From Mobula hypostoma (lineage: Eukaryota): 64,000 bases of DNA. The notes under the pieces were generated by a model. The model searched no databases, was not told the origin of the DNA, and saw only the letters and a program-made list of their open reading frames with translations. Positions 6,184-62,270 of this stretch are shown here, one piece after another (within the stretch, counting starts at the first letter, position 1; each line of letters starts with the position of its first letter). Made by a program: the position numbers and the translations under genes. The DNA is taken from assembly GCF_963921235.1 (NCBI RefSeq), contig NW_026948140.1, forward strand, positions 558,001 to 622,000, given 5' to 3'.

Positions 6184-6927
6184 TTAAACTTTTTCCCTAG
6201 TGTGAGTTCGCCGATGCGTCACAAGGTTGGATGACTGAGTAAACGCTTTCCCACATTCAGAGCATGTGAACGGCCTCTCCCCAGTGTGAACTCGCTGATG
6301 TAACTTCAGTTCAGATGACCGAGGAAATCCCTTCCCACAGTCAGAGCAGGTAAATGGCATTTCGCCAGTGTGAACTGACTGGTGTGCCAGTAGCTGAGAT
6401 GACCGAGTGAATCCCTTCCCACAGTCTGAGCAGGTGAATGGCCTCTCTTCAGTGTGAACCGACTGGTGTGTCTGTAGGTGGGATGACTGAGTGAATCCCT
6501 TCCCACATTCAGAGCAGATGTACGGCCTCTTCCCAGTGTGAACGGACTGGTGTGTCTGAAGGTTGCTTAACTGAGTGAATCCCTTCCCACACACAGAACA
6601 GGTGAATGGCCTCTCTCCTGTGTGAACTCGCTGGTGTCTCTGTAGGTTTGATGACCGAGCAAATGCCTTTCCACAGTCTGAGCAGGTGAATGGCCTCTCC
6701 CCAGTGTGAATTCGCCGGTGTATCATTAAGTGACATAAATGAGTGAATCCCTTCCCACAATCTGAGCAGGTGAACGGCATCTCCCCAGTGTGAACTGACT
6801 GGTATGCCATTAGGTCAGATGATCGAAGCAATCCCTTCCCACTGTCTGAGCTGGTGAACAGCCTCTCTCCAGTGAAACTAACTGATGTGCATGTACGTGG
6901 GATGACCAAGTGAATCCCTTCCCACAT
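6184..6927 (-). CDS. C2H2 zinc-finger protein (7 intact tandem fingers, TGERPF linkers, no KRAB seen)
   Basis: Repeated CxxC-GKGF-x5-L-xxH-xxx-H units. AATAAA on the minus strand at ~5982-5987. The true start is uncertain because the N-terminal MWEGIH is an out-of-frame finger. Confidence 0.85.
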
Positions 6928-10842: not shown

Positions 10843-12515
10843 AAACACAAAATACTCTGCAGATGCTGGGGGCAAAGCAACACTCACAACACGCTGGAGG
10901 AACTCAGCAGGTCGGGCAGCATCCATCGAAAAGATTGGTCGACGTTTCGGGCTGGAACCCTTCGTCAGGACTGTAGGGGGAAGGGGCAAAGGCCCTATAA
11001 AGAAGGTGGAAGGAGGATGGGAAAGAGAAGACTGGCAGGTGCTAGGTGAAAAACCAGTAAGGGGAAAGATAAAGGGGTGGGAGAGGGGAGGCAGGGAGGT
11101 GATAGGCAGGAAAGGTGAAGAAAGAATAGGGGAAAACACAATGGGAAGTAGAAGGAGGCAGAACCATGAGGGAGGTGATAGGCAGCTGGGGGAGGGGGCA
11201 GAGTGACATAGGGATAGGGGAAGGGAGGGGGAGGGAATTACCAGAAGTTGGAGAATTCTGTGTTCATGCCAAGTGGCTGGAGACTACCTAGACGGTATAT
11301 GAGGTGTTGCTCCTCCAACCTGAGTTTAGCCTCATCATGGCAGTAGAGGAGGCCATATATGGATATAACTGAATGGGAGTGGGACAGCAGAGTTGAAGTA
11401 GGTGGCTACTGGGAGATCCTGTCTGTTGCTGCGGACGCATCTTTCCCTCTCCGCTTTCCACAGGGATCAGTCCCTCTGCGACTCCCTGATCCACACGTCC
11501 CTCCCCACGGATCTCCCACCCAGCACTTATCCCTGTAAGCACGAGTGCTACACCTGCCCCTATACCTCCTCTCTTACCACCATTCAGGGCTCCAAACAGT
11601 CCTTCCAGGTGATGGCAACACTTCACTTGTGAGTCTGTTGGGGTCATCTATTGCATCCGGTGCTCCCGGTGCGGCCTCCTCTACATCGGTGAAACCTGAC
11701 GCAGATTGGGGGACCGCTTCGTCGAGCACCTCCGCTCCGTCTGCCACAACAGACAGGATCTCCCAGTAGCCACCCACTTCAACTCTGCTTCCCACTCTCA
11801 TTCAGATATGTCCATACATGGCCTCCTCTCCCGATGTGGCCTTCCATATATTGGCGAGACTGAACACCTACGCTCTGTCCGCCAGAGTAAGCAGGATCTC
11901 CCAGTAGCCACACATTTTAATTCCACGTCCCATTCCCATTCTGATATGTCTATCCATGGCCTTCTCTACTGTAAAGATGAAGCCACACTCAGGTTGGAGG
12001 AACACCACCTTATATTCCGTCTGGATAGCCTCCAACCTGATGGCATGAACATTGACTTCTCTAACTTGCGCTAATGCCCCACCTCCCCCTCGTACCCCAT
12101 CTGTTATTTATTTATATACACACATTCTTTTTCTCTCCCTCCTTTTTCTCCCTCTGTCCCTCTCACTATACCCCTTGCCCATCCTCTGGGCTTTTGCCCC
12201 TCTCCCCCTTTTCTTTTTCGCTAGGCCTCCTGTCCCATGATCCTCTCATATCCCTTTTGCCAATCAACTGTCCAGCTCTTAGCTCCATCCCTCCCCCTCC
12301 TGTCTTCTCCTATCATTTTGGATCTCCCCCTCCTCCTCCGACTTTCAAATCTCTTATTAGCTCTTCTTTCAGTTAGTCCTGACGAAGGGTCTCGGCCGGA
12401 AAAGTCGACTGTACCTCTTCCTAGAGATGCTGCCTGGCCTGCTGCGTTCACCAGCAACTTTTATGTGTGTTGCTTGAAATTCCAGCATCTGCAGATTTCC
12501 TCGTGTTTGCGTTTT
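10843..12515. mobile_element. PLE-A composite with inverted 3' segments (minus tail 10843-11435, plus pieces 11436-12515)
   Basis: GIY-YIG pieces (LPVATHFNS..HSDMSIHGLL..LEEHHLIFRL) in both orientations. HHRs at ~10938-10973 (-) and ~12375-12411 (+). Confidence 0.85.
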
Positions 12516-13695
12516 TAAAAATACGAACTGGTCTGTTTTGGTTTCCTCTTGTGATATTACTGAGGTGTCCCGTGACTCTGGTTGTCAAGCTGTTGCCCGT
12601 CTCCCCTATGTATATAATATGGCATTGTTTGCCCTGGATTGCATATACTACATTCTTTTGTTCGCACCTTATCCTCTGGTCTATCTCAGCCCACTTTCTT
12701 GTAGCTCTGTTGTATATGCTTTTTGAAATTCTTATGTATATGCATGCCCTGCAGTTTTCCACCTCGCAGTTTGGCATTGCTCGTACTTTGGTACTGACTA
12801 GTATGTCTTTTAAGTTTCTACCCCTTTTGAAGGCTGAAACTGTGGTGTATTGTCCCAGTGTCCCCCCTTCTGCTTTTAGTTCTTCAAAGTGTGTTTTGAC
12901 TGTCCTGTGGATATCCACTGCCATCCCACTGTATCCAGTTATCAAGGGTAGTTTCTGTGTTGTCCTGTGGTGGGGGATTTGTGATACTTTTTAAAAAGTC
13001 AGATTTGATGTGTCTGAGTCCAGAGAAGAGGATAAGAGTGGCTTGGTGGAAGTCCTCTGCCCTGGTGCAAATGTGGTGAAACCAGGTCAGCTGTCCTTTG
13101 ACAATGCCTCTGAAAGTGTGTTTGGGATGGTGGCTCCCTGTGTGTAGGAGGGCGTGTGTGTCTGTGGTTTTAAAGAATACTTTGGTGCCTAGTTTCTGGC
13201 TGTCATTTTCTGGTGCTAGTTTAAATACCGTAGTGTCCAGGAAGTCAATTTTCTCCCTATTTGTTGCGGCCTTAACCTTAATCGATGGATGATGGGTGTT
13301 TAGGATTTGAATAAACTCCTCTAATTCTACCTCCGAGTGTGTCCACACTCCCCAGATGTCATCCAGGTATGTGTAGAGACACATGGGATCTTTGGGGCAC
13401 TTTGGATAAACTGTTTCCTCCCACTTTGTCATGTATATATTGGCATAGGCTGGAAAAAACGTCTTTCCCATTGCTGCGCCCTTGACTTGTAAGTAGAATT
13501 CATCATTGAATTCAAAGTCATTTTCAGTCAGGCTGAGGTGAAGGCGTTCTATCAAGGCCTCATCTGGTCTCTGTAGCTGAGGGTTGTTCTGTAGGATATC
13601 CCTCACTGCTTCTATACCCCTGTCCCTTTCTATATTGGTGTACAGGCTTTCACTGTCCATGGTGAAGAGTATGGCCTCAGGGGACACTGACATGG
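12516..13695 (-). mobile_element. PLE-B internal fragment (RT and GIY-YIG), frameshifted
   Basis: ORFs 12884-13693 (YLDD, QVKGAAMG) and 12448-12945 (CEVENCRAC, IIYIGETG) closely match 57036-59282. Confidence 0.92.
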
Positions 13696-14818
13696 GTTAG
13701 GATTTCATCCTATTTTGCCTTTTAGGATTACATTGTTTAATTGTGACTTTAGTGTTCAACCTGTTGGTTCACTGCTCTGTGGGTATAAAGTGGTAGAAGC
13801 TTGCGGTTAATTTATGTTGGGGTTGGGGCCTAACCACAGTAGTCTGTGCTAGTTTTCCCAGCTTCTTGGATTTACTTTGGCTTTTGAGGACCAGGATGAT
13901 GAGAGACGTGTCACTTCTGGTTAGGATGCGAGTATGCGGGCAGTGGGCAAAATATCCCTCTCGGGTTTGTGGATCTCGTACTGGAGATGCAGTATCACTT
14001 CACCCTGCCACTTTGTTTTTGGCCCACGTTGTCATCCTCTCAGTCCCCAGCTTGCCTTTATTAGGATCTTCCTCCTTGTTAACTCCATTCTGGAGTTTAA
14101 GTCAAAATGGTGGAGTTATTGCTTATGGATAGTATTTTGGGGTTGGGAGTTTTTTTAGGGACTAAGTGGGGTGATCTGGGATTGTGCAGTGACTGGGAGA
14201 GTCTCCAGTTTCACCACTCCTGTGGCTTCCTCAAGGGAATGTGCTGTAAAAACTCAGGTGCTCTCTGTTTAAACCTGGGTTTGTGTATCTCCCCCATCTG
14301 GAATGTTCCACCCTACCCCCCCCCACCCATTCTCGGCATTGCTTTACCAAACCTGTTTGTCGAGTTCCGCTGCAGCCCCTGACTGTTGCTAAAATATCGG
14401 CCTGCCCTGTTTGTTTAAACTGTTAAAGGTAAATTGTCCGCTAATCTCACTTCTCCTTTTTATTTCCTGACCTTCTCCATTCCTTGAGCCCCGAATTTTT
14501 CATTTCTATTCCTTTAATATCTAGCTAGAGTTAAGATTAGAGTTCATCCTATTTCTCCTTTTAGGATTACATTGTTTAATTGTGACTTTAGTGTTCAATC
14601 TTTTGGTTCATTGCTGTATGGGTATAAAGTGGTAGAAGCTTGTGGTTAATTTATGATGGGGTTGGGGCCTAACCACAGTAGTCTGTGCTAGTTTTCCTAG
14701 CTTCTTGGATTTACTTTGGCTTTTGAAGGACCAGGGTGATGAGAGACGTGTCACTTCTGGTTAAGATGCGAGTATGCGGGCAGTGGTCAAAATATCCCTC
14801 TAGTGTTTGTGGATCCCG
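13696..14818 (-). repeat. PLE-B 3' UTR/pseudo-LTR derived repeat array with HHR
   Basis: Blocks match 55430-55700 and 61140-61745. HHR remnant at 14191-14240. Confidence 0.85.
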
Positions 14819-18930: not shown

Positions 18931-21900
18931 AAGAACATAGAACATAGAATAGTACAGCACAGTATAGGCCCTTCGGCCCACAATGTTGTGCCGACCCTCA
19001 AACCCTGCCTCCCATATAAGCCCCCACCTTAAATTCCTCCATATACCTATCTAGTAGTCTCTTAAACTTCACAAGTGTATCTGCTTCCACCACTGACTCA
19101 GGCAGTGCATTCCATGCACCAACCACTCTCTGAGTAAAAAACCTTCCTCTAATATCCCCCTTAAACTTCCCACCCCTTACCTTAAAGCCATGTCCTCTTG
19201 TATTGAGCAGTGGTGCCCTGGGGAAGAGGCGCTGGCTATCCACTCTATCTATTCCTCTTATTATCTTGTACACCTCTATCATGTCTCCTCTCATCCTCCT
19301 TCTCTCCAAAGAGTAAAGCCCTAGCTCCCTTAATCTCTGATCATAATGCATACTTTCTAAACCAGGCAGCATCCTGGTAAATCTCCTCTGTACCCTTTCC
19401 AATGCTTCCACATCCTTCTTATAGTGAGGTGACCAGAACTGGACACAGTACTCCAAGTGCGGCCTAACCAGAGTTTTATAGAGCTGCATCATTACATCGC
19501 GACTCTTAAACTCTATCCCTCGACTTATGAAAGCTAACCCCATAAGCTTTCTTAACTACCCTATCCACCTGTGAGGCAACTTTCAGGGATCTGTGGACAT
19601 GTACCCCGAGGTCCCTCTGCTCCTCCACACTACCAAGTATCCTGCCATTTACTTTGTACTCTGCCTTGGAGTTTGTCCTTCCAAAGTGTACCACCTCAAA
19701 CTTCTCCGGGTTGAACTCCATCTGCCACTTCTCAGCCCACTTCTGCATCCTATCAGTGTCTCTCTGCAATCTTTGACAATCCTCTACACTATCTACAACA
19801 CCACCAACCTTTGTGTCGTCTGCAAACTTGCCAACCCACCCTTCTACCCCCACATCCAGGTCGTTAATAAAAATCATGAAAAGTAAAGGTCCCAGAACAG
19901 ATCCTTGTGGGACACCACCAGTCACAATCCTCCAGTCTGAATGTACTCCCTCCACCACCACCCTCTGCCTTCTGCAGGCAAGCCAATTCTGAATCCACCT
20001 GGCCAAACTTCCCTGGATCCCATGCCTTCTGACTTTCTGAATAAGCCTACCGTGTGGAACCTTGTCAAATGCCTTACTAAAATCCATATAGTTCACATCC
20101 ACTGCACTATCCTCATCTATATGCCTGGTCACCTCCTCAAAGAACTCTATCAGGCTTGTTAGACATGATCTGCCCTTCACAAAGCCATGCTGACTGTCCC
20201 TGATCAGACCATGATTCTCTAAATCCCTATAGATCCTATCTCTAAGAATCTTTTCCAACAGCTTTCCCACCACAGACGTAGGGCTCACTGGTCTATAATT
20301 ACCCAGACTATCCCTACTACCTTTTTTGAACAAGGGGACAACATTCGCCTCCCTCCAATCCTCTGGTACCATTCCCGTGGACAACGAGGACATAAAGATC
20401 CTAGCCAGAGGCTCAGCAATCTCTTCTCTCGCCTCGTGGAGCAGCCTGGGGAATATTCCGTCAGGGCCCTGGGACTTATCTGTCCTAATGTATTTTAACA
20501 ACTCCAACACCTCCTCTCCCTTAATATCAGCATGCTCCAGAACATCAACCTCACTCATATTGTCCTCGCCATCATCAAGTTCCCTCTCATTGGTGAATAC
20601 TGAACAGAAGTATTCATTGAGGGCCTCGCTCACTTCCACAGCCTCCAGGCACATCTTCTCACCTTTATTGCTAATCAGTCCTACCTTCACTCCTGTCATC
20701 CTTTTTTTCTTCACATAATTGAACAATGCCTTGGGGTTTTCCTTTACCCTACTCGCCAAGGCCTTCTCATGCCCCCTTCTTGCTCTTCTCAGCCCCTTCT
20801 TAAGCTCCTTTCTTGCTTCCCTATATTCCTCAATAGACCCAGCTGATCCTTGCTTCCTAAACCTCATGTATGCTGCCTTCTTCCTCCTGACTAGATTTTC
20901 CACCTCACTTGTCACCCATGGTTCCTTCACCCTACCATTCTTTATCTTCCTCATGGGACAACTTTATCCCTAACATCCTGCAAAAGATTTCTAAACATCG
21001 ACCACATGTCCATAGTACATTTCCCTGCAAAAACATCATCCCGATTCACACCCGCAAGTTCTAGCCTTATAGCCTCATAATTTGCCTTTCCCCAATTAAA
21101 AATTTTCCTGTCCTCTTTGATTCTATCCTTTTCCATGATAATTATAAAGGCCAAGGAGCGGTGGTCACTGTCCCCCAGATGCTCACCCACTGAGAGATCT
21201 GTGACCTGACCCGGTTCATTACCTAGTACTAGATCTAGTATGGCATTCCCCCTGATCGGTCTGTCCACATACTGTGACAGGAATCCGTCCTGGACACACT
21301 TAACAAATTCTTCCCCATCTAAACCCTTGGAACTAATCAGGTGCCAATCAATATTAGGGAAGTTAAAGTCACCCATGATAACAACCCTGTTATTTTTGCA
21401 CCTTTCCAAAATCTGCCTCCCAATCTGCTCCTCTGTATCTCTGCTGCTACCAGGGGGCCTATAGAATATCCGCAGTAGAGTAACTGCTCCCTTCCTGTTC
21501 CTGACTTCCACCCATATTGACTCAAAAGAGGATCCTGCTACATTACCCACCCTTTCTGTAGCTGTAATAGTATCCCTGACCAGTAATGCCACCCCTCCTC
21601 CCCTTTTTCCACCCTCTCTATCCCTTTTAAAGCACTGAAATCCAGGAATATTGAGAATCCATTCCTGCCCTGGTGCCAGCCAAGTCTCTGTAATGGCCAC
21701 TACATCATAATTCCATGTATGTATCCAAGCTCTCAGTTCATCACCTTTGTTCCTGATGCTTCTTGCATTGAGGTACACACATTTCAGCCCTTCTACCTTA
21801 CTGTCTTCACACCGTTTATTCTGCTTCTCTTTCCTCAAAGCCTCTCTGTATGTTAGATCTGGCTTTACTCCATGCACTTCTTTCACTGCTCGATCGCTCT

Positions 21901-22158
21901 GGGTCCCATCCCCCTCGCAAATTAGTTTAAACCCTCCCGAACCATGCTAGCAAACCTACCTGCAAGGATATTGCTCCCCCTCGCGTTCAGGTGCAACCCA
22001 TCCAATCTGTACAGGTCCATCTTCCCCAGAAGAGATCCCAATGATCTAAAAATCTAAAACCCTGCTCCCTGCACCAACTCCTCAGCCACGCATTCAACTG
22101 CCATCTCCTCCAATTCTTACCATCACTGTCACGTAGCACTGGCAGCAATCCTGAGAAT
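18931..22158 (-). mobile_element. CR1 LINE with ORF1 3' end, near-complete ORF2 (two frameshifts) and tail
   Basis: ORFs 20951-21886 (EN), 19506-20954 (RT, FADD) and 18998-19543 (C-term). (TTCTATG)n-type tail at ~18931-18950. ORF1 esterase end LDGLHLN...EGLN* at ~21922-22015. Confidence 0.95.
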
Positions 22159-23155
22159 GTCAGGGATCCATTAGTAGAATTTATAATTTATTTTTACTGC
22201 AGAAAGATAACCTCTCACTAAAGATTAAACAAAATTGGGAGAGAGAACTTAATATGACTTTTGTTAATGAAGGTTGGTTGCAGGTTCTGAAAATGGTTAA
22301 TTCTTCTTCGATATGTGCCAATCATTGTTTACTTCAGTTTACAAACGTATGTAAAATTGTTAACTGTTATTATTTAACAAAGGAGAGGCTAACCAAAATA
22401 TTTCCTAATATAGATAATTATTGTGATAGGTGCAAAAATGAAGTAGCTACTTTGTCACGTATGTTCTGGTCATGTCCCTCATTGAAATCTTTTTGGAAAT
22501 CTTTATTTTCTACAATTTCTAAAGCTCTGAAAATTAATTTACAACCTAATACATTTACTGTTCTATTTGGAATAGTTCTGCGTCATATTCAGGGTATTTA
22601 ATTTTCAAACCAACATGTAATTGCATTCATTACATTGTTGGCAAGAAGGGCTATTTTATTGAAGTGGAAAGATACCTCTGCTCCTACACTAGTTCAGTGG
22701 TTTTCCCAAGTAATATTATGTCTTAGTTTAGAAAAAATTAGAAGTAGAACTTTTGATCCCCGATTTGATTTTGAGAGAAGGTGAGGCTCTTTTGCTAAAT
22801 ATTATCATTTAATTTTAATTAATTTACATGGTTTCCTTACAATTTTATATTATATAAATGTGATTTGGTGGTTCTTGTTTTCTTTTTCTTATATCTATAC
22901 GATTGTAAGACGTATTGCTCCGGGAGTTGGTTCCTAATGGGTTTTTTTTCTCTCTTTTTTTTCGTTTTGTAGTTAGTGGGTTTTTTTTAGTTAGTTGGCG
23001 TTCTCTTTCTTCCTTCTCTTTCTTTTATAAATTTTTTTCCATTAACATATATAAGTTCTTTTCTTCAGCTTTATTAATTATATATATACTAATTTGTTGA
23101 ACTTCTGTATTTTATAGCTGTAGAAGATTATATATCAATAAAAAAAATTTTTAAA
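22159..23155 (+). mobile_element. L1-clade ORF2 C-terminus and 3' UTR with polyA
   Basis: WEREL, CDRC..ATLSRMFWSCP zinc-knuckle region. T-rich UTR ending aataaaaaaaa. Confidence 0.88.
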
Positions 23156-24629: not shown

Positions 24630-27049
24630 CCTCCGAGAATGCCATAGAGAAACAACCGGTCCTCCACCAGCTTTGACCAGTCCTTGGCACTCATTACTGC
24701 CTCCCGCCAGAACAAGCCTCTCTCCTCCTCCTGCTCCTAGAGTAGCTCCCAGCCCTGCCGTTTCCACCGCCCTGGGAGAGGAACCCATGCAGCTGGGACG
24801 GAACCACCTTTCTCCCATAGAAAGACCCCAGAGATTGAGAGCGGGTGAGTGTCTATATTGCGGCCAGTCCGGCCACTTCCTTGCTACCTCTCCCCTTCAG
24901 CCAAAAGGGAAGGCTCACCAGTAGAAAGGGGGACCCTGGTGAGCCAGACAACATTCCCTTCTGTCCCCCGACCCCAGATGCAGCTTCAAGCCATTTTGTG
25001 TTACAACCAACAGTCCCTGCCTCTGTTAGCACGAGTGGACTCCGGCACTGAGGGAAACTTTCTGAATGAAAACTTAGCCTTCCAAGCCAGAATTCCTCGT
25101 GAGCCATTGAGTACCTCCCTGGAAGCCCGGGCATTGGATGGTAGACTACTGGCCTGAGTCACACACTGCACAGAACCCCTGCCTCTCCTTCTCTCTGGGT
25201 AACATCGGGCACCTTGGAAGAGTGAAGGGAGCTGAACATCCATTCATCGTCTGGATGGACCATAAATACCTGGCATACATCCAAACCGCTAAATGCCTTA
25301 ATTTCTGCCAAGCCAGTTGGGCATTATTTTTTGGCTGTTTCAAATTCACCCACTCCTATCGTCTGGGGTCCAAGAACGGGAAGCCCGATGCTCTCTCCCA
25401 TCAATACATCTCCAAGGAGGGCCTTCCCAACACCGATACCATCCTTCCACCATCCTGTGTTGTGGCTGCCCTCACCTGGGAGATCGAATTCATAGTCAAA
25501 GAGGCCCAATGGACTCAACCTGACCCAAGCAATGGACCTCCCAATCGTCTCTTCATGCCTGACTCTGTCCAGTCTCAGGTTCTCCAATGGGGACACACTT
25601 CTCGTTTCGCCTGCCATCCTGGAATCAATCGAACTCTGCCCTTTACGAAGCGACATTTCTGGTGGCCCACCATGGATGCTGACACTTGCTCCTTCATCTC
25701 TGCCTGTTCTGTGTGTGCCCGTGGAAAAGCCCCCCACCGACCACCTGCTGGGTTGCTTCGTCCCCGACCTGCCCTTGGCCACCCTTGGTCCCACATTGCT
25801 CTGGATTTCGTTACTGGACTACCCCCTTCACATGGTAACACTGCCGTACCCACCATGGTGGACCATTTCTCCAAAGACATGCACTTCATAGCCCTTCCCA
25901 AACTCCACACAGCCCATGAAACAGCCGACCTCCTTGTCCATCACGTCTTCCGCCTTCATGGAATTCCATAGAAACCATAGAAACTACAGCACAGAAGCAG
26001 GCTCTTTGGCCCTTCTTGGCTGTGCCGAACCATTTTCTGCCTAGTCCCACTGACCTGCACACAGACCATATCCCTCCATTCACCTCCCATCCATGTACCT
26101 GTCCAATTTATTCTTAAGTGTTAAAAAAGAACCCGCATTTACCACCTCGTCTGGCATTGTTTCTGACCGAGGCCCCCAATTCATCTCTCAAGTCTGGAGA
26201 TCCTTCTGTCAAACCCTTGGAGCCTCAGTAAGTCTGTCTTCTGGTTTCCATCCACAGACTAACGGTCAAACGGAACGTGCAAACCAGGATTTGGAAGCAG
26301 CACTGCGCTGCATATCTGCCAACAACCCGTCATCCTGGAGCACCCATCTTACTTGGGTGGAGTACAACTCCCTGGTCAGCACCGCCACCAGAATGTCTCC
26401 CTTTGAATGCTCCCTCAGTTATCAACCCCCTCTGTTTCCTGCCCATGAAGACGACATTGCTGTGCCTTCAGTTCAGGCCCATAGCTGCCGGTGCCACAAG
26501 GTCTGGAAGGATGCACGCGCGGCCCTGTTCCGCTCAGCTAACCGCAACCAGAAGATTGCCGATCGCCATCGAATTCCTGTGCCCAACTATCGGCCTGGTC
26601 AGAGGGTTTGGTTCTCTTCAAAAGACATCCCCCTCAAGAATGAACCCAAGAAACTTGCCCCTCGTTACCTCGGACCATTCGAACTTGAGAGCATCATCAA
26701 CTCCTCGGTGGTTAAACTCAAACTGCCCAGATCCATGCACATTCATCCTACATTCCACGTCTCCCAACTGAAACCTGTGTCTGTCAGCCCTTTGTTCTCT
26801 CCTGCTGAACCTCCTCCACCTGCTTGGATCATTGACGACTAGCCAGTTTACACCGTCTGGTGAATACTGGATGTGCGTTGCCAAGGCAGGGGTCTCCAGT
26901 ACCTGGTCGATTGGGAGGGATACGGTCCTGAGGAGTGCACCTGGATTCCCCGCTCCTTCATTTTGGACCCTTTCCTCATCCGAGATTTCCATCGAGACAA
27001 TCCGGCCAAGCCTTGTGGTTCTCCTGGAGGCTCCCGTTGAGGGGTATAC
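24630..27049 (+). mobile_element. Ty3/Gypsy chromovirus-type LTR retrotransposon internal region, RT deleted
   Basis: Gag knuckle CLYCGQSGH, protease VDSG, integrase H-H-C-C ([14 protein letters not shown]), [26 protein letters not shown] module and chromodomain [15 protein letters not shown]. Polypurine tract just before 27050. Confidence 0.92.
25968..26156 (-). mobile_element. CR1 3' tail inserted in Gypsy integrase
   Basis: Nearly identical to 51768-51956. Interrupts the integrase between HGIP and IVSDRGPQ. Confidence 0.88.
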
Positions 27050-28642: not shown

Positions 28643-28999
28643 CTCTCCTTCTTTAATCCCTCCAAGTCTATCATGTTAAAAACAATGGAGCCCCAGAATA
28701 TTGAGTGGCCAGTCTTGCCCCTCTGGCAAGCAAGTCTCACTAATGGCTAAAATATCATTATTCTATGTGTGATCCATGCCCTGAGCTCATCTGCCTTTTC
28801 TACGATACTTCTTGCATTGACTAATACATAGCCCAGGATATCAGTCACATCATACTCAACCTTTTGGTCCTATATTTTGTATAAGGTCTTAACAACATCT
28901 GACTTTGCAGCCACTCCACCATCTGTTCTGGCACCCTGGTTCCCATCCCTCTCCTAATGATCCAAAAATCTTACACCCTCCCTCCTACATCAACTCCTT

Positions 29000-29905
29000 G
29001 GTCACATGTATGTCTACAGGACCAGTGTTTTGTTCCGGATGCCAGATGTGGGATTTCGGGCAGACTACCAGTCTCCCTGATGGCCACATCTGCACCATGC
29101 ATCGAGATGCAGCTCAGGAACTGTGTTCAGGAACTGGAGCTGCAGCTCAATGACTTTGGCTTGTTAGGGACAGTTAGAGGTGATAGACAGGAGCTGCAGG
29201 GAGGTAGTCAACCCCAAAGGTACAGATGACAGATAAATGGGTGACTGCCTGGAGAGGAAAGGGAATTGTCAGATAGTGGACAGCAACCCTGTGGCTGTCC
29301 CCCTCAACAATAAGTACTCCATTTGGACTACTGTTGGGGGGGGAGGTGGGGATCTACCTAGGGGGAAGCAACAAAGGCCGTGCCTCTGGCACTGAGTCTA
29401 TCCCCATGGCTCAGAAGGACAGGAAACTGAAGAGGATGAAAGCAGTAATAGGGGATCCTATAGTTAGGGGGACAGATAGGTGACTCTGTGGATGCGAAAA
29501 AGAAACATGGATGGTAGTTTGCCTCCCAGTTGTCAGGGTCCTCAATGTTGCGTCCACAATATCTTGAAAAGGGAGGGTCCGCCGCCAGAAGTTGTGGTAC
29601 AAATTGGTACCAATAGCATAGGTAGAAAAGGGGAGCAGGTCCTGAAAACAGAATACAGGGAGCTAGAAAGGCATTGAGAAGCAGGACCTCATTGGTAGTA
29701 ATCTTGGGATTTCTGCCTGTCTCACGTGACAGTGAGGATAAGAATGGAATGAGGTGGCAGATAAATGCATGGATGAAGAATTGGAGCAGGGGGCAGGGAT
29801 TCAGACCTCCTCTGGAGCAGGTGTGATCTGTACAAAAGTGACAGGTTGCACTTGAAAGTGAGGACCACCACTATTCTTGTGGAATTTACTAGAGCTATTG
29901 GAAGT
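29000..29905 (+). mobile_element. CR1 ORF1 fragment (zinc finger, coiled coil, SGNH esterase), degenerate
   Basis: CSGCQMW...CT, VIGDPIVRG (GDS block), VVVQIGTNSIG and DRLHL. Confidence 0.8.
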
Positions 29906-31375
29906 GTACAACCCCCAGATCACAGCACCCAGTCCCTAAAAAACCTCCAACCCCAGAAGCAATAACTCCACCATTTTGCCAGTTGTCACCCCACCTTGCT
30001 TCGCCATGAATCCTCCACCCCCATTACTTAGCTCTACCCCCGGGAAATCCCCCCCCATAACACCCCTCAATGACTACTGCCCCACCCCAAGATCACAGCA
30101 CTCAGTCCCCGAAACCCCCCTCCCGACCCCAAAACACTATCCATAAGCAATGACTCCATCATTTTAACTTAAACTCCAGAATGGAGGTTAACGAGGAGGA
30201 AGATTCTAATAAAGCGAAGTCGGGGACTGAGATGATGACAACGTGGGCCAAAAACAATGTGGCAGGGTGAAGTGATACTGCACCAGTACGAGATCCACAA
30301 ACACAAGAGGGATACTTTGCCCATTGGAGAAGTGAGATTGGCAGACAATTTACCTTTAACAGTTTAAACAAACAAGGCAGGCTGGTATCCCAGCAAAAGT
30401 CAGAGGCTGCAGCGGAACTGGTCAAACGGGTTTGGTCAAGCAATGCCGAGAATGGATGGGGTGGGTACAGTGGAACATTCCACGGGGGGGGGGGGGTGGC
30501 ACAGAAACCTACCTTTAAACAGAGAGCACCTGAGTTTTTACCGCACATTCCCTTGAGGAAGCCACAGGAGAGGCGAAACTGGAGACTCTCCCAGTTACTG
30601 CACAACCCACAGATCACAGCACCCAGTCCCTAAAAAAAACCCCAACCCCAAAAACACTATCCATAAGCAATGACTCCATCATTTTAATTTAAACTCCAGA
30701 ATGGAGGTTAACGAGGAGGAAGATTCTAATAAAGCGAAGTCGGGGACTGAGATGATGACAACGTGGGCCAAAAACAATGTGGCAGGGTGAAGTGATACTG
30801 CACCAGTACGAGATCCACAAACACAAGAGGGATACTTTGCCCACTGGAGAAGTGAGATTAGCAGACAATTTACCTTTAACAGTTTAAACAAACAAGGCAG
30901 GCTGGTATCCCAGCAAAAGTCAGAGGCTGCAGCGGAACTGGTCAAACGGGTTTGGTCAAGCAATGCCGAGAATGGATGGGGTGGGTACAGTGGAACATTC
31001 CACGGGGGGGGGGTGGCACAGAAACCTACCTTTAAACAGAGAGCACCTGAGTTTTTACCGCACATTCCCTTGAGGAAGCCACAGGAGAGGCGAAACTGGA
31101 GACTCTCCCAGTTACTGCACAACCCACAGATCACAGCACCCAGTCCCTAAAAAAAACCCCAACCCCAAAAACACTATCCATAAGCAATAACTCCACCATT
31201 TTGCCAGTTGCCACCCCACCCTACCTCCCTTTGCCGTGAATCCCCCACCCCCAACACTTAAACCTACCCCCGGGCCTTTCCCCCCACAACACTCCTCAGT
31301 GAGCTATTGCCCCACCCCAAGATCACAGCACACAGTCCCTAAAAAAAAACAACCCCAAAACACATGGGCAATAAC
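29906..31375 (+). repeat. PLE-B derived tandem array (~520-bp units) with HHRs
   Basis: 30130-30650 and 30650-31170 are near-identical. HHR remnants at 30548-30596 and 31064-31113. Confidence 0.9.
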
Positions 31376-33985
31376 TCAAACACGAGGAATTCTGCAGACG
31401 CTGGAAATTCAAGCTACACACATCAAAGTTGCTGGTGAACTCAGCAGGCCAGGCAGCATCTCTAGGAGGAGGTACAGTCGATGTTTTGGGCCGAGACCCT
31501 TCGTCAGGACTAACTGAAGGAAGAGTGAGTAAGGGATTTGAAGCAACACTCACAACATGCTGGAGGAACTCAGCAGGTCAGCATCCGTGGAAAAGATCAG
31601 TCGACGTTTCGGGCCGGGACACTTCGCCGGGACTGGGTTTGAAAGTGGGAGGGGAAGGGGGAAATCCAAAATGATAGGACAAGACAGGAGGGGGAGGGAT
31701 GAAGCCAAGTGCTGGACAGGTGATTGGCAAAAGGGATATGAGAGGATCATGGGACAGGAGGCCCAGGGAGAAGGAAAAGGGGGAGGGGGGAAAACCCAGA
31801 GAATGGGCAAGGGGTATAGTCAGAGTGACAGAGGGAGAAAAAGGAGAGTGAGAGAAAGAATGTGTGTATATAAATAAATAACGGATGGGGTACGAGGGGG
31901 AGGTGGGGCATTAGCGCAAGTTAGAGAAGTCAATGTTCATGCCATCAGGTTGGAGGCTACCCAGACGGAATATAAGGTGTTGTTCCTCCAACCTGACTGT
32001 TGCTTCATCTTTACAGTAGAGGAGGCCGTGAATAGACATATCAGAATGGGAATGGGACGTGGAATTAAAATGTGTGGCCACTGGGAGATCCTGCTTTCTC
32101 TGGCGGACAGAGCGTAGCTGTTCAGCAAAATGATCTCCCAGTCTGCGTCAGGTCTCGCCAATATATAGAAGGCCACATTGGGAGTACCGGTCGCAGTATA
32201 TCACCCCAGCCGACTCACAGGTGAAGTGTCGCCTCAGCTGGAAGGACTGTCTGGGGCCCTGAATGGTGGTAAGGGAGGAAGTGTAAGGGCATGTGTAGCA
32301 CTTGTTCTGCCTTCAAGGATAAGTGCCAGAGGGAGATCAGTGGGGAGGGATGGGGGAAATGAATGGACAAGGGAGTTGTGTAGGGAGTGATCCCTGCGGA
32401 AAGCCGGGGGGGGGGGGGGAGGGAAAGATGTGCTTAGTGGTGGGATCCCGTTGGAGGTAGTGTAAGTTACGGAGAATAATATGTTGGACCCGGAGGCTGG
32501 TGGGGTGGTAGGTGAGGACCAGGGGAACCCTATTCCTAGTGGGGTGGCGGGAGGATGGGGTGAGAGCAGATGTGCATGAAATGGGGGAGATTCGTTTGAG
32601 AGCAGAGTTGATGGTGGAGGAAGGGAAGCCCCTTTCTTTAAAAAAGGACATCTCCCTCATCCTGGAATGAAAAGCCTCATCCTGAGAGCAGATGCGGCGG
32701 AGACGGAGGAATTGTGAGAAGGGGATGGCATTTTTGCAAGAGACAGGGTGAGAAGAGGAATAGCCCAGATAGCTGTGAGAGTCAGTCGGCTTATAGTAGA
32801 CATCAGTAGATAAGCTGTCTGCAGAGATAGAGACAGAAAGATCTAGAAGGGGGAGGGAGCTGTCGGAAATGGACCAGGTAAACTTGAGGGCAGGGTGAAA
32901 GTTAGAGGTAAAGTTAATGAAGTCAACGAGCTCAGCATGCGTGCAGGAAGCAGCGCCAATGCAGTGGTCGATGTAGTGAAGGAAAAGTGGGGACAGGTAC
33001 TAGAATAGGTTTGGAACATAGATTGTTTCACAAAGCCAACAAAAAGGCTAGCATAGCTCGGACCCATACGGGTGTCCATAGCTACACCTTTAGTTTGGAG
33101 GAAGTGGGAGGAGTCAAAGGAGAAATCATTAAGAGTAAGGACTAATTCTGTTAGACGGAGCAGAGTGATAGTAGAGGGGAACTGATTAGGTCTGGAATCC
33201 AAAAAGAAGCAGAGAGCTTTGAGACTTTCCTGATGAGGGATGGAAGTATATAGGGACTGGACATCCATGGTGAAAATAAAGCAGTGGGAGCCAGGGAACT
33301 TAAAATCATCCAAAACTTTAAGAGCGTGAGAAATGTCAGAAGTGACCCGATGCAGACTGGGAGATCGTTTTGCTGAACACCTACGCTCTGTCCGCCAGAG
33401 AAAGCAGGATCTCCCAGTGGCCACACATTTTAATTCCACATCCCATTCCCATTCTGATATGTCTATCCACGGCCTCCTGTACGGTAAAGAGGAAGCCACA
33501 CTCAGGTTGGAGGAACAACACCTTATCTTCCGTTTGGGTTGCCTTCAACCTGATGGCATGAACATTGACTTCTCTAACTTCCACTAGTGCCCCACCTCCC
33601 ATTCGTACCCCATCCATTATTTATTTATATACACACATTCTTTCTCTCAATCGATCTTTTCTCCCTCTGTCCCTCGGACTATACCCCTTGCCCATTCTTG
33701 GGGTTTTTTCCCCCTCTCACCCTTTGCCTTCTCCCTGGGCCTCCTATCCCATGATCCTCTCATATCCCTTTTGCCAATCACCTGTCCAGCTCTTGGCTCC
33801 ATCCCTCCCCCTCCTGTCTTCTCCTATCATTTTGGATCTCCCCCTCCCCTTCCCACTTTCAAATCTCTTACTAGCGCTTCCTTCAGTTAGTCCTGATGAA
33901 GGGTCTCGGCCCGAAACGTCGACTGTACCTCTTCCTAGAGATGCTGCCTGGCCTGCTGTGTTCACCAGCAACCTTGACGTCTGTG
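31376..33985 (-). mobile_element. PLE-A copy with inverted 3' segment (33340-33985)
   Basis: FTMDVQSLYTSIP, QTKGVAM and GIY-YIG on the minus strand. The plus-strand copy of the GIY-YIG end and tail mirrors 31430-32155. Confidence 0.92.
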
Positions 33986-34305: not shown

Positions 34306-37300
34306 TTAACTTGAACTCCAGAATGGCAGTTAACGAGGAGGAAGGCCAAATAAAGACAAGTCAGTAACTGAGATGATGAGAATGTGGGCCAAAAGCAAGT
34401 TGGCAGGGTGAAGTGATACTGCATCTCCAGTACGAGATCCACTAACACTAGAGGGATATTTTCCCTACTGACTGCATACTCGTATCCTAACCAGAAGTGA
34501 CACATCCCTCATCATCCTGGTCCTCAAAAGCCAAAGTAAATCCATGAAGCTAGGAAAACGAGCACAGTTTACTGTGGTTAGGCCCCAACCCACACATCAA
34601 TTAACCACAAGCTGCTACCACTTTCTACCCACAGAGCAGTGAACCAACAGGTTGAACACTAAAGTCACAATTAAAAATGTAATCGTAAACGGAGAAATTG
34701 GATGAAATCTAATCTTAACTCTAGCTAGATATTAAAGGAATAGAAATAAAAAATTAGGGGCTCAAGGAATGGAGAAGATCAGGAAATAAATAGGAAAGTG
34801 AGATTAGCGGACCATTTACCTTTAACATTTTAAACACACAAGGCAGGCCTGTATCCCAGTAACAGTCAGGGGCTGCAGCGGAACTGGACAAACAGGTTTG
34901 GTAAAGCAATGCCGAGAATGGGTGGGGTGGGGGATAGGGTGGAACATTCCAGAGAGGGGAGACACAGAAACCCACATTTAAACAGAGCAACACAAATATA
35001 AAATGCTGGTGAATGCAGCAGGTCAGGCAGCATCTATAAGAAGAGGTACAGTCGACGTTTCGGGCTGAGACCCTTCGTCAGGACTAGAGAGCACCTGAGT
35101 TTTTACAGCACATTTCCTTGAAGAAGCCACAGGAGAGGCGAAACTGTAGACTCTCCCAGTCACTGCACAACCCACAGATCACAGCACCCAATCCATAAAA
35201 AAAACCCCAACCCCAAAACACTATCCATAAGCAATAACATAACCATTTTGCCAGTTGCCACCCCACCCCACAACCCTTTGCTGTGAATCCTCCACTCCCA
35301 TTACTTAATTCTACCCTCGGGCCTTCCCCCGTCCCATAACACCCCTCAGTTAGCGACAGCACAACCCCCAGGTCGCAGCACCCAGTCCCTGAAAAAGACT
35401 TACATAAGAAATAACTCCACCATTTTAACTTAAACTCCAGAACGGAGGTTAACGAGGAGGAAGATCCTGGTAAAGGGAAGTCGGGAACTGAGATGATGAC
35501 AACGTGGGCCAAAAACAAAGTGGTAGGGTGCAGTGATACTGCATCTTCAGTACGAGATCCACAAGAGGAATACTTTGCCAACTGGAGAAGTGAGATTAGC
35601 GGACAATTTACCTTTAACGGTTTAAACACACAAGGCAGGCCGGTATCCCAGCAACAGTCAGGGGCTGCAGCAGAACTCGACAAACAGGTTTGGTAAAGCA
35701 ATGCCGAGAATGTGTGTGTGTTGGGGGGGGGAATAGGGTGGAACATTCCAGAGGGGGGAGACAGACAAACCCACGTTTAAACAGTGAGCACCTGAGTTTT
35801 TACCGCACATTCCCTTGAGGAAGCCACTGGAGAGGCAGAACTGGAGACTCTCCCAGTCACTCAACAACACCCAGTCCCTAAAAAAACCCCAACCCCAAAA
35901 ACACTATCCATAAGCAATAACTCCATCACTTTGTCAGTTGCCACCCCACCCCACCTCCCTTTGCCGTGAATCCTCCACCCCCATTACTTAACTCTATGCC
36001 CGGACCTTCGCCCCCCCCCCAATAACACCCCTCAATAAGCTACTGCACAACCCCCAGATCAGAGCATCCAGCCCCTGAAAAAGACTCCCAACCCCAAAAC
36101 ACTCTACATAAGAAATAACTCCACCATTTTAACTTAAACTCTGGAACGCAGGTTAACGAGGAGGAGGATCCTAATAAAGGGAAGTCAGTAACTGAGGTGA
36201 TGAGAATGTGGTGGCAGGGTGAAGTGATACTGCATCTCCAGTACGAGATCCACAAACACTAGAGGGATATTTTGCCCATTGCCTGCATACTCGCATCCTA
36301 AGCAGAAGTGACACGTCCCTCATCATCCTGGTCCTTAAAAGCCAAAGTAAATCCTTCTTCTTCTTTTAAATCTTTTTATTGAGTAAGTATACAAAAAAGG
36401 TAAGCCATATAAACATTAATACAATGTTAAAGTATAATAAAATTCCAAAAGGTAACAATACCAAAAGGAAAATACTACAAACAATGTAATTTAAGCATAA
36501 GAAACCAAGATAACATAATAGTATACTAAATTTTATATATATCAATGGAAAAAAAAAGAAAAAAAAACCCCCCAAAAAAAAACCCACCGTGCAGCTAACT
36601 AAAAGCAAGGCAAAGCAATGGGCTAACTTGAAACCAAACAGAGTTAAACTTAAAATCACGTCCTCAATCCCGACCTCCATTAAAAACAGTGAAAAAAAAA
36701 ACAAGAAGGGTAAATATTACATTAAATGAAAATATCGAATAAAAGGTCCCCAAATCTGTTCAAATTTAAATGAAGAATCATAAAGGTTACTTCTAATTTT
36801 CTCCAAATTCAAACATAAAATCGTCTGAGAAAACCAAAAAAAGGTAGTTGGAGCATTAAGCTCTTTCCAATGTTGTAAAATACATCTTTTCGCCATTAAA
36901 GTAAGAAATGCAATCATTCTACGGGCTGAAGGGGAAAGATTACTAGAAATTTTAGGTAGTCCAAAGATAGCAGTAATAGGGTGAGGAGAGATATCTATAT
37001 TTAATACCTTAGAAATAATATTGAAAATATCTCTCCAAAAAGTTTCCAAAGTAGGGCAAGACCAAAACATATGAGTTAAAGAGGCTATCTGCCCCGAACA
37101 TCTATCACAGAAAGGATTAATATGCGAGTAAAAACGCGCTAACTTATCTTTGGACATATGTGCTCTATGAACCACTTTAAATTGAATTAGGGAATGTTTA
37201 GCACAAATAGAGGAAGTATCAAAGTAAATCCAAGAAGCTAGGAGAACTATCACAGACTACTGCGGTTAGGCCCCAACCTGAACATAAATTAACCACAAGC

Positions 37301-38335
37301 TTCGACCACTTTCTACCCACAGAGCAGTAAACCAACAGGTTGAACACTAAAATCACAATTAAACAATGTAATCCTAAATGGAGAAATAGGATGAAATCTA
37401 ATCTTAACTCTAACTAAATATTAAAGGAATAGAAATGAAAAATTAGGGGCTCAAGGAATGGAGAAGGTCACTAAACAGAGAGCACCTGAGTTTTTACAGC
37501 ACTTTCCCTTGAGGAAGCCACAGGAGAGGCGAAACTGGAGACTCTCCCAGTCACTGCACAACCCACAGATCACATCAACCAGTCTCTGAAAAAAACCCCA
37601 ACCCCAAAACACTATCCATAAGCAATAACACAACCATTTTAACTTAAACACCAGAACGGAGGTTAACGAGGAGGAAGATCCTGGAAAAGGGAAGTCGCGG
37701 ACTGAGATGATGACAACGTGGGCCAAAAACAATGTGGCAAGGTGAGGTGATACTGCATCTCCAGTACGAGATCCACAAACACAAGAGGGATACTTTGCCC
37801 ACTGGAGAAGTGAGATTAGTGGACAATTTACCTTTAACAGTTTAAACAAACAAGGCAGGCCGGTATCCCAGCAAAAGTCAGGGGCTGCAGCGGAACTGGT
37901 CAAACGGGTTTGGTCAAGCAATGCCGAGAATGGATGGGGTGGGTACAGTGGAACATTCCACGGGGGGGGGTGACACAGAAACCTACCTTTAAACAGAGAG
38001 CACCTGAGTTTTTACCGCACATTCCCTTGAGGAAGCCACAGGAGAGGCGAAACTGGGGGACTCTTCCAGTTACTGCACAACCCACAGATCACAGCACCCA
38101 GTCCCTAAAAAAAACCCCAACCCCAAAAACACTATCCATAAGCAATAACACAACCATTTTGCCAGTTGCCATCCCACCCTACCTCCCTTTGCCGTGAATC
38201 CTCCACCCCCAACTCTTAACTGTACCCCCGGGCCTTTCCCCCCACAACACTCCTCAGTGAGCTATTGCCCCACCCCAAGATCACAGTACACAGTCCCTAA
38301 AAAAAAAATCAACCCCAAAACACATAGGCAATAAC
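34306..38335 (+). repeat. PLE-B derived mosaic array (interrupted by L1 at 36355-37219)
   Basis: Permuted UTR blocks with HHR remnants at ~35113, 35809, 37503 and 38021. Confidence 0.88.
36355..37219 (-). mobile_element. 5'-truncated L1 insertion with 12-bp TSD
   Basis: Open ORF2 C-terminus (CDRC..SLTHMFWSCP). AATAAA and an A/GAA tail. CAAAGTAAATCC at both 36343-36354 and 37220-37231. Confidence 0.92.
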
Positions 38336-39575: not shown

Positions 39576-41403
39576 AGTTATTGCCTATGTGTTTTGGGGT
39601 TGTTTTTTTTTAGGGACTGTGTGCTGTGATCTTGGGGTGCGGCAATAGCTCACTGAGGAGTGTTGTGGGGGGAAGGACTGGGGGTAGAGTTAAGTGTTGG
39701 GGGTGGAGGATTCACGGCAAAGGGAGGTAGGGCGGGGTGGCAACTGGCAAAATGGTTGTGTTATTGCTTATGGATAGTGTTTTTGGGGTTGGGGTTTTTT
39801 TTAGGGACTGGGTGCTGTGATCTGTGGGTTGTGCAGTAACTGGGAGAGTCTCCAGTTTCGCCTCTCCTGTGGCTTCCTCAAGGGAATGTGCGGTAAAAAC
39901 TCAGGTGCTCTCTGTTTAAAGGTAGGTTTCTGTGTCACCCCCCCCCCCGTGGAATGTTCCACCGTACCCACCCCACCCATTCTCGGCACTGCTTGACCAA
40001 ACCCGTTTGACCAGTTCTGCTGCAGCCCCTGACTTTTGCTGGGATACCGGCCTGCCTTGTTTGTTTAAACTGTTAAAGGTAAATTGTCCGCTAATCTCAC
40101 TTCTCCAGTGGGCAAAGTATCCTTCTTGTGTTTGTGGATCTCGTACTGGAGATGCAGTATCACTTCACCCTGCCACTTTGTTTTTGGCCCACATTGTCAT
40201 CATCTCAGTCCGCGACTTCCCTTTTCCAGGATCTTCCTCCTCGTTAACCTCCGTTCTGGAGTTTCTGTTAAAATGGTGGAGTTATTGTTTATGGATAGTG
40301 TTTTGGAGTTGGAGGTCCCTTTTTGGGACTGGGTACAGTGAACTGGGGGTTGTGCAGTAGCCCATTGAGGTGTATTATTGCGGGGGAGTGCCCGGGGGTA
40401 GAGTTAAGTAATGGGGGTGGAGGATTCATGTCGAAGGGAGGGGTGTGGGGTGGCAACCCGCAAAATGGTTATGTTATTGCTTATGGATAGTGTTTTGGGG
40501 TTGGGGTTTTTTTAGGGATGGGTGCTGTGATCTGGGGGTTTTAAAGGTGAATGTGAGAGTCTCCAATTTCACCTCTCCTGTGGCTTCCTCAAGGGAATGT
40601 GCTGTAAAAACTCAGGTGCTCTCTAGTCCTGACAAAGGGTCCCAGCCCGAAACGTCAACTGTACCTCTTCTTATAGATGCTGCCTGGCCTGCTGCATTCA
40701 CCAGCAATTTATATTTGTGTTGCTCTGTTTAAACATGGGTTTCTGTGTCTCCCCTCTCTGGAATGATCCACCCTATCCCCACCCCACCCATTCTCGGCAT
40801 TGCTTTACCAAACCTGTTTGTCCAGTTCCGCTGCAGCCCCTGACTGTTACTGGGATACAGGCCTGCCTTGTGTGTTTAAAATGTTAAAGGTAAATGGTCC
40901 GCTAATCTCACTTTCCTATTTATTTCCTGATCTTCTCCATTCCTTGAGCCCCTAATTTTTCATTTCTATTCCTTTAATATCTAGCTAGAGTTAAGATTAG
41001 ATTTCATCCTATTTCTCCGTTTACGATTACATTTTTAATTGTGACTTTAGTGTTCAACCTGTTGGTTCATTGCTCTGTGGGTATAAAGTGGTAGCAGCTT
41101 GTGGTTAATTGATGTTCGGGTTGGGGCCTAACCACAGTAAACTGTGCTCGTTTTCCTAGCTTCTTGGATTTACTTTGGCTTTTGAGGACCATGATGATGA
41201 GGGATGTGTCACTTCTGGTTAGGATACGAGTATGCAGTCAGTGGGGAAAATATCCCTCTAGTGTTTGTGGATCTCGTACTGGAGATGCAGTATCACTTCA
41301 CCCTGCCAACTTGCTTTTGGCCCACATTCTCATCATCTCAGTTACCGACTTGTCTTTATTTGGCCTTCCTCCTCGTTAACTGCCATTCTGGAGTTTAAGT
41401 TAA
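39576..41403 (-). repeat. PLE-B derived array, inverted orientation
   Basis: Reverse complement of the blocks at 37635-38335 and 44526-46550. Confidence 0.88.
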
Positions 41404-55401: not shown

Positions 55402-55430
55402 TTAGGGTTAGGGTTAGGGTTAGGGTTAGG
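55402..55430 (+). repeat. Interstitial vertebrate telomeric repeat (TTAGGG)4-TTAGG at a PLE-B junction
   Basis: Direct read: ttagggttagggttagggttagggttagg. Confidence 0.95.
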
Positions 55431-59797: not shown

Positions 59798-59809
59798 GTC
59801 CTCCGACTC

Positions 59810-60988: not shown

Positions 60989-61131
60989 CGTTAAAGTAAG
61001 ACAATAATCAGAAAACTACAGATGAAGTCCACTTAATTAATGTCCTTAGCGCTTGTTCTTCGTTTTGGGTTCCGTGATTTCGACTCCTGCGAATTGCCTT
61101 TAACGAAGCGTATTGCCTTCCATAAAGCGTA

Positions 61132-62263: not shown

Positions 62264-62270
62264 TTAGGGG

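Follow-up and report, generated by a model that had tools for sequence, protein, structure and literature searches.

A conserved slippery heptamer at the ORF1/ORF2 junction of CR1 retrotransposons, a candidate site of programmed −1 frameshifting

A stretch of 64,000 nucleotides (nt) from Mobula hypostoma (NCBI RefSeq assembly GCF_963921235.1, contig NW_026948140.1, positions 558,001 to 622,000 of the forward strand; here called the window, from whose first letter all coordinates are counted) carries on its minus strand a copy of CR1, a long interspersed nuclear element (LINE). This element's first open reading frame (ORF1) ends on an in-phase slippery heptamer, U_UUA_AAC, with a stop codon directly behind it, and the second (ORF2) lies in the −1 frame with no AUG ahead of its endonuclease, a layout that is common to distant CR1 lineages. 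Judged by sequence comparison, CR1 ORF2 is probably made by programmed −1 frameshifting on U_UUA_AAC, which would yield an ORF1–ORF2 fusion. A Penelope-like element in the same window ends its own esterase ORF in a like manner. This sharing of the layout across two retroelement classes is real, and we lean towards separate origins of the two shift signals.

Results

The CR1 ORF1/ORF2 junction in the window

On the minus strand CR1 ORF1 ends GAG GGT TTA AAC TAA, with the heptamer TTTAAAC at 21931–21925 and the TAA at 21924–21922. No stop interrupts the −1 frame between 21946, five codons ahead of the heptamer, and 20951, and its product is an APE endonuclease (Pfam PF03372, E = 2.7e-19). The first Met of ORF2 is codon 186 (at 21376, within the motif VIMGDFN), which lies 133 codons past the first endonuclease motif at codon 53. 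Thus an in-phase heptamer and stop at the end of ORF1, a stop-free −1 frame leading into ORF2 and the lack of an early in-frame ATG, all three of which had been claimed in a first-pass annotation of this DNA, are borne out.

The element has the features of a CR1-clade LINE, namely an SGNH esterase in ORF1, an APE endonuclease followed by a reverse transcriptase (RT) in ORF2 (PF03372 and PF14529 on 21931–20954; PF00078 on 20963–19509), and a tail of ATTCTATG-type (ATTCTRTG-type) short repeats at 18950–18932, which we take to be the usual CR1 3′ tail. Its parts are as follows.

21922–22163, minus strand: 3′ remnant of CR1 ORF1, an SGNH esterase from block V (DGLHL) to the terminal Leu-Asn-stop, placed in two frames by tblastn of relatives
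21925–21931, minus strand: slippery heptamer U_UUA_AAC in ORF1 phase, placed by sequence and conservation
21922–21924, minus strand: ORF1 stop TAA adjoining the heptamer, a candidate pause site or stimulator
21910–21914, minus strand: run of five G, starting 11 nt past the heptamer (10-nt spacer), a candidate stimulator
20951–21931, minus strand: 5′ part of CR1 ORF2 in the −1 frame, a 52-codon linker and the APE endonuclease, with the first in-frame ATG at 21376–21374
19506–20963, minus strand: RT part of CR1 ORF2, after a frame break (PF00078, E = 1.5e-31)
18998–19555, minus strand: C-terminal part of CR1 ORF2, after the second frame break
18932–18950, minus strand: 3′ ATTCTATG-type short repeats, placed by sequence

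The window copy is dead, being 5′-truncated near 22163 and carrying one frame break in ORF1 and two in ORF2. Only a 3′ remnant of ORF1 (approximately 22163–21922) is left, with its break near 22017–22020; other CR1 copies have one extra base near 22016 in all four public runs that contain the family. Because of this break, the ORF1 phase in the window rests on homology. The remnant is 62–87% identical to 18 proteins, all with PF13472, and its nearest named relatives are from rays and skates.

A single CR1 copy proves nothing, because TTTAAAC is common in the window, and the case rests instead on conservation. The heptamer occurs 57 times on the two strands, mostly within one repeat, and a stop comes next in three of the 57; TTTAAACTAA occurs once, and at least once in 20 of 100 shuffles. 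Given Leu-Asn, the chance of this spelling is approximately 0.6% per lineage, as calculated from the codon use of the window CR1 ORF2. The source of most of the 57 matches is a dispersed repeat (14268–14419, 30363–31031, 34829–35781, 37841–37988, 39920–40880 and 44728–47986), each copy of which contains two TTTAAAC, frequently in the form of the palindrome GTTTAAAC. A candidate junction at 13225, TTTAAACTAG, was rejected as chance, since it is out of frame within a decayed RT. Two further decayed pieces of CR1 ORF1 or ORF1/ORF2, at 29025–29902 (plus strand) and 28754–28998 (minus strand), are both without the junction.

Conservation of the CR1 junction in DNA

Metagenomes were scanned with a pattern that lies upstream of the junction and is blind to the heptamer. 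Twenty loci were returned, ten of which were rejected as chance matches to the pattern; the other ten were CR1, and eight of them include the junction (L019 and L030 do not), so that with the window copy the set comprises nine DNA junctions. The heptamer is intact in five. The Leu codon is TTA in seven of the nine (TTC and TCA in the others, never CTN or TTG), compared with 2 of 31 other Leu codons in the same tails. The Asn codon is AAC in seven, the base ahead of TTA is T in eight, and a stop is present in five, the remaining four being decayed copies. In the three junctions with an intact −1 frame (the window, L016 and L023) there is no Met ahead of the endonuclease motif, and the linkers are 52, 33 and 93 codons long, respectively. 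L016 is an intact case: it reads CAT TTA AAC TAG, its −1 frame leads into the endonuclease, its first Met lies past the motif, and it is 97% identical to a sturgeon-named protein. The other seven metagenome junctions are decayed and come from one data set; their closest proteins are swallow- or snake-named.

From the four public runs with the CR1 family, 11,286, 11,377, 7,038 and 6 contigs were placed. Several contigs of diverged CR1 subfamilies match either side of the DGLH-coding stretch 21942–22021 and not inside it, so that the DNA of these subfamilies is more similar at the junction than over the part that encodes the catalytic motif. Six scans of viral contigs found nothing, and no CR1 ORF1 was present in the three host-contaminated genomes searched. 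Taken as a survey of heptamer phase and ORF2 start codons, of the kind by which the first-pass annotation had proposed to check its reading, the data give a fixed phase, a Leu codon without synonymous change and no early AUG in any of the three intact junctions. The heptamer is held against synonymous change in about three DNA lineages, and the protein ends agree.

Ends of CR1-like ORF1 proteins

Fifteen of the 18 close CR1 ORF1 relatives end in Leu-Asn (LN), and the residues that precede it vary. A profile search added the best 150 representatives, giving 164 proteins in total, 104 of them with a usable tail. After near-copies had been collapsed, 34 tails ended LN, 7 GN, 2 SN, 2 EN and 1 KN, and 29 ended otherwise. 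LN is terminal although the tail past the DGxH motif spans 25–39 residues, which argues that its position tracks the stop and not the fold. Among named members, an LN end occurs in proteins of rays and skates, of sturgeon, of snake and of swallow.

As U_UUA_AAC forbids Q, E, K, M or W immediately ahead of LN, few such residues, whose codons do not end in U, are to be expected there. Indeed, one of these residues precedes LN in 1 of 34 tails, whereas positions −4 to −7 have them in 29 of 136 cases (Fisher p = 0.011). Moreover, Q precedes all seven GN ends, which fits the need of G_GGA_AAC for a codon ending in G. The GN rows form a single clade in the tree, mixed with FLN, FFR, EN and KN ends.

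The ZfL2-1-type ORF1 group never ends in Leu-Asn, and one of its members, P0133, continues in frame into endonuclease-like sequence. For both of these reasons this group may use readthrough or another route for ORF2.

Candidate stimulators of the proposed CR1 slip

Two features beyond the heptamer are common to CR1 junctions, the adjoining stop and a G run at a 10-nt spacer. The run GGGGG stands at +11 in six of the nine junctions (in L023 only after a 6-nt deletion), despite a linker range of 33–93 codons. In the window CR1 the 100-nt downstream fold has a z score of −2.9, and this includes a distal hairpin approximately 57–89 nt from the site.

The heptamers U_UUA_AAC, G_GGA_AAC and A_AAA_AAC are among the most shift-prone (PMC5009743). 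In the same source, a stop 3 nt behind the pea enation mosaic virus site G_GAU_UUU is described as needed for the slip, and spacers of 11–14 nt are given for arterivirus and cardiovirus sites, the arterivirus one being stimulated by bound proteins. These three viral systems are precedents for a needed nearby stop and for a longer-spaced stimulator, although their heptamers and motifs are other than those of CR1, in which any role of the G run is putative. By analogy, the stop or the G run may be the working stimulator in CR1.

The proposed course of events is that most ribosomes would stop at the end of CR1 ORF1 and release the ORF1 protein (ORF1p), while a minority would slip one base back, with tRNA-Leu moving from UUA to UUU and tRNA-Asn from AAC to AAA. 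The slipped ribosomes would bypass the stop and continue with CUA into the variable linker, the endonuclease and the RT. The outcome would be much ORF1p and little enzyme, as in gag-pol expression. With no conserved 3′ fold in CR1 to account for it, ribosomes could be made to pause by the adjoining stop, by a factor on the G run 10 nt downstream, or by both, and this step is more speculative than the rest.

The Penelope-like element and its junctions

The esterase of the Penelope-like element in the window ends TCT TTA AAC TAG on the minus strand, with the heptamer at 59234–59228. Its −1 frame is open for 732 codons, and the first Met, codon 58, lies past a conserved N-terminal motif at codon 22. 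The following parts were placed.

59225–61015, minus strand: Penelope-like ORF1, with two internal stops and a C-terminal SGNH esterase (59698–59225)
59228–59234, minus strand: heptamer U_UUA_AAC, followed by TAG (59227–59225)
59160–59222, minus strand: predicted 3′ stem, starting approximately 6 nt past the heptamer (70 nt, −27.4 kcal/mol, z approximately −3.8)
57036–59234, minus strand: Penelope-like ORF2 in the −1 frame, with RT, a CX4CxxC linker and a GIY-YIG-like end

An RT, a CX2-5CxxC linker and a GIY-YIG domain at the C terminus characterize Neptune/Nematis-type Penelope-like elements (PMC8557442). In the window the RT, CX4CxxC and a YIGETG motif are found in one ORF by translation; Pfam finds the RT only, and under its cut-off.

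The search for relatives of this ORF1 found 84, of which 79 were usable and 57 remained after collapsing. In 38 of the 57, LN occupies a constant position; another 8 show VN, AN or IN, and 11 are without Asn; nine of these 11 have FL, which as read from protein would fit U_UUU_UUA. In three of the four proteins in which Q, E, K, M or W stands ahead of LN, the next residue is F or L. Four of 83 relatives (P0236, P0240, P0241 and P0256) have a precomputed PF08719 domain, presumably the NADAR family, besides the esterase.

In DNA, the RT is in the −1 frame in all five distinct Penelope-like junctions (the window and four loci), which use varied heptamers. L003 (duplicated as L005) has U_UUA_AAC, with its first Met at codon 371. 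In L002 the Leu-Asn is respelt CTA AAT, a new heptamer, A_AAU_UUC, stands one codon later, and no Met occurs in the available part. L001 has G_GAU_UUA, and L004, which is broken, has A_UUA_AAC. A stem approximately 6 nt past the site is predicted in the window, L003 and L004 (in the latter two a C/G stem at +7, z approximately −1.8 at 50 nt), and none in L001 or L002. Across these five cases only, junctions with a canonical heptamer have no AUG at the stop and those with an imperfect one do, and a switch between frameshifting and stop-start coupling is therefore possible. For the esterase-bearing family, the same kind of slip as proposed for CR1, perhaps with a conventional 3′ stem, is likely.

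The loci L001–L005 and L006–L012 of this family come from three bacterial genome records and are likely to be host-animal DNA; one contig among these records holds two identical Penelope-like copies. No new Penelope-like loci were found in 47 and 301 further genomes searched.

Partial copies of the main Penelope-like family also lie in the window at 54915–55456, 61677–62267, 63457–63985 and 12448–13696, several of them in tandem around the main element, and a second family is present as broken RT/GIY-YIG pieces at 32337–33544 and 42355–43686 (minus strand). Elsewhere in the window, broken integrase-like frames at 25111–26842 (plus strand) look by eye like the remnant of a long terminal repeat retrotransposon, and an open frame with tandem C2H2 zinc fingers at 6184–6927 (minus strand) is probably a host gene exon.

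Comparison of the CR1 and Penelope-like esterases

The two esterases are 18% identical in profile–profile comparison (probability 65%), and the match to PDB 4C1B has an E value of 7e-45 for CR1 and 0.008 for the Penelope-like family. Trees of the esterase domains were built with the terminal residues excluded, one from 73 rows that include 13 bacterial outgroups (a further bacterial row, over-long, being omitted) and one from 60 rows without bacteria. In both free trees the Penelope-like rows group as a single clade, whose stem is longer than 2 changes per site, next to the fish ZfL2-1-type rows, and outside both the vertebrate CR1 clade (support 100/97) and the 35-row LN/GN clade. Grouping them with vertebrate CR1 gave p = 0.40 with bacteria and p = 0.57 without in the approximately unbiased (AU) test, the constrained tree in the latter case being 1.99 log units better. 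Hence the nesting of Penelope-like esterases within CR1 ORF1s, put forward in the first-pass annotation as a check, is not seen in either free tree, but the grouping is not rejected by the AU test. Against the Penelope-like profile, LINE-type groups score medians of 27, 11.5 and 9.7 bits and bacterial esterases 0.4. The closest group is the ZfL2-1 type, which has no LN (median 27 versus 9.7 bits), in agreement with the trees. A look-up in the Atlas returned generic SGNH clusters only.

Discussion

How is CR1 ORF2 expressed?

The idea that CR1 ORF2 is made by −1 frameshifting, advanced in the first-pass annotation from one copy, has gained comparative support from the fixed phase, the absence of synonymous Leu change, the covariation expected of the heptamer type and the lack of an early AUG, but the usual 3′ structure is lacking. 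Several observations weigh against it. The stem-loop or pseudoknot that canonical cassettes have 5–9 nt behind the site was not found in CR1: across six junctions no conserved or shared 3′ fold was detected over 50–70 nt (z −0.8 to +2.3; pseudoknots and long-range pairing lie outside the model), and the region downstream of L016 is nearly unstructured. Four of the nine DNA junctions are without the heptamer and four are without the stop, and, as seven of the nine are decayed copies from one data set, only about three independent DNA lineages are represented. Among the variants listed for contigs from the four runs, none lies at 21917–21937, which is not proof of constancy. At the protein level, 60 of the 164 CR1-like sequences were dropped as truncated, shifted or fused, and 29 of the 75 collapsed tails, including the fish ZfL2-1-type group, end outside LN, GN, KN, SN and EN. 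The QGN spelling is known from protein only, none having been found as DNA in the viral contig scans, and because the QGN rows lie in a single clade the Fisher values overstate independence. In the Penelope-like family, L001 and L004 (two of the five junctions) combine an imperfect heptamer with an AUG that is in frame and lies at the stop of ORF1, overlapping it as UGAUG in L004, and this counts against a single mechanism there. The case is wholly comparative, and from it we infer the slip, its rate and its stimulator.

Nor does the lack of an AUG by itself demand a frameshift, since in human L1 the AUG of ORF2 is regarded as dispensable for its initiation (PMC5009743). Termination followed by reinitiation at a nearby non-AUG codon, with the heptamer and G run holding or repositioning the post-termination ribosome, would likewise give a separate ORF2 protein (ORF2p). 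This explanation draws on the UAAUG by which the SART1 ORFs are coupled (PMC3894237), on the UGAUG of L004 and the AUG just ahead of the stop in L001, on the near-cognate GTG and CTG codons within the window CR1 linker, and on the missing 3′ fold. However, in the window, L016 and L023 the CR1 stop has no in-frame AUG overlapping or next to it, as coupling of the SART1 type would require, and reinitiation predicts neither the XXX_YYY_Z rule that separates xLN from QGN ends nor the displacement of the L002 site by one codon; we regard it as the main rival, but quite improbable. Still less credence is given to the heptamer as a by-product, with Leu-Asn retained because of the esterase structure or simply inherited, its codons without significance, and ORF2 expressed via an internal start or a separate or spliced RNA. 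In the Penelope-like esterases the spacing between the catalytic His and LN is indeed constant, with LN closing a likely helix, related copies share codons, and TTTAAAC is abundant in the window. In CR1-like proteins, though, LN stays terminal over tails of differing length, TTA is far more frequent at the junction than among other Leu codons of the tails, and esterases of the ZfL2-1 type fold with no LN. A splice acceptor at the CR1 junction was considered and rejected, as the window has TAA rather than YAG and the upstream sequence is purine-rich, with no pyrimidine tract. Frameshifting on U_UUA_AAC remains the preferred explanation for CR1.

Relation to known systems

The CR1 junction resembles that of infectious bronchitis coronavirus, which uses U_UUA_AAC, and the retroviral gag-pol type, in that a structural ORF closes on an in-phase heptamer and the −1 polymerase ORF has no early AUG (PMC5009743). 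It differs from these viral sites, which have a stem-loop or pseudoknot 5–9 nt away (PMC5009743), in its adjoining stop, its G run at 10 nt without a conserved fold, and its setting in a non-LTR (long terminal repeat) element. SART1 and mammalian L1 likewise make little ORF2p from a two-ORF LINE RNA (PMC3894237, PMC5009743), but as a separate protein, via an overlapping UAAUG or after a spacer, whereas in CR1 the frames overlap, a heptamer is present and an AUG is not. Translation of LINE ORF2 is treated as an open question in PMC3894237, and a possible +1 shift is described for DIRS-1 (PMC5006619).

Esterases in the ORF1s of CR1, RTEX and Penelope-like elements have been described, including that of ZfL2-1 (PDB 4C1B; PMC3905857); the word 'frameshift' is absent from the main text of that paper, and the ZfL2-1-type ORF1s are without the Leu-Asn end, unlike CR1. 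Some Penelope-like elements have been drawn with ORF1 set off by a frameshift and a pseudoknot (PMC8557442, legend to Fig. 1), but the accompanying text, as available, names no slippery sequence and connects the frameshift with neither the esterase nor CR1. Neither CR1 nor Penelope is mentioned in the available text of PMC5009743. A literature search found no report of a CR1 ORF1/ORF2 frameshift; papers of 1997 on chicken and turtle CR1, which lay outside the search, may have raised it.

Exchange or convergence

The first-pass annotation took CR1 and the Penelope-like element to share one esterase–heptamer–stop module. Both window copies do end in Leu-Asn-stop on U_UUA_AAC, but 'the same module' is an overstatement: heptamers vary within the Penelope-like family, its tail is often longer, and a 3′ stem, predicted in three of its five junctions, takes the place of the CR1 G run. 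A recent swap within the host was rejected, the window Penelope-like esterase being 32–58% identical to its own family and scoring below 25 BLAST bits against any CR1-like row. Because the Penelope-like esterases form one deep clade, and are only 18% identical to those of CR1, a recent swap of the esterase is very unlikely.

Ancient transfer of esterase and shift site as one cassette between CR1-type LINEs and Penelope-like elements is a possibility that we hold as tentative. It would account for two SGNH esterases that both end Leu-Asn on U_UUA_AAC, the LINE-type esterases outscore the bacterial ones against the Penelope-like profile, the AU tests do not reject the grouping with vertebrate CR1, and sharing of esterase ORFs among retroelement classes has been published (PMC5408684). 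Against such a transfer stand the position of the Penelope-like clade outside vertebrate CR1 in both free trees, the absence of LN from its nearest profile group, the differing 3′ elements, and the small number of efficient heptamers, which makes convergence cheap. Any UUA AAC site ahead of a stop spells Leu-Asn, so that the match in itself needs no shared descent. On balance, separate origins of the two shift signals are somewhat favoured over either an ancient cassette or a recent swap.

The most far-reaching version of these ideas would have esterase-bearing CR1 LINEs from rays to birds normally make a Gag-Pol-like fusion by a structure-free −1 slip, which the abutting stop would drive together with a G run that binds protein and keeps a fixed spacing of 10 nt, with esterase and shift site forming an old portable cassette common with Penelope-like elements. 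Taken as a whole, this version is unlikely.

Implications

The feature at the CR1 junction is real and conserved. It is a good candidate for a new setting of a known mechanism, one whose stimulator would be non-standard; a site that has a fixed G run and no 3′ fold would be unusual in this respect. Elements of the CR1 type abound in the genomes of birds, reptiles and cartilaginous fish. If the conserved −1 slip is true, the CR1 endonuclease and RT would be made fused to an RNA-binding, esterase-bearing ORF1p, whereas the described LINE routes give a separate ORF2p. The slip would then set the ratio of ORF1p to ORF2p, the fusion could explain how the enzyme is retained on its own RNA, and the annotation of CR1 ORF2 starts, and of which copies count as 'intact', would change.

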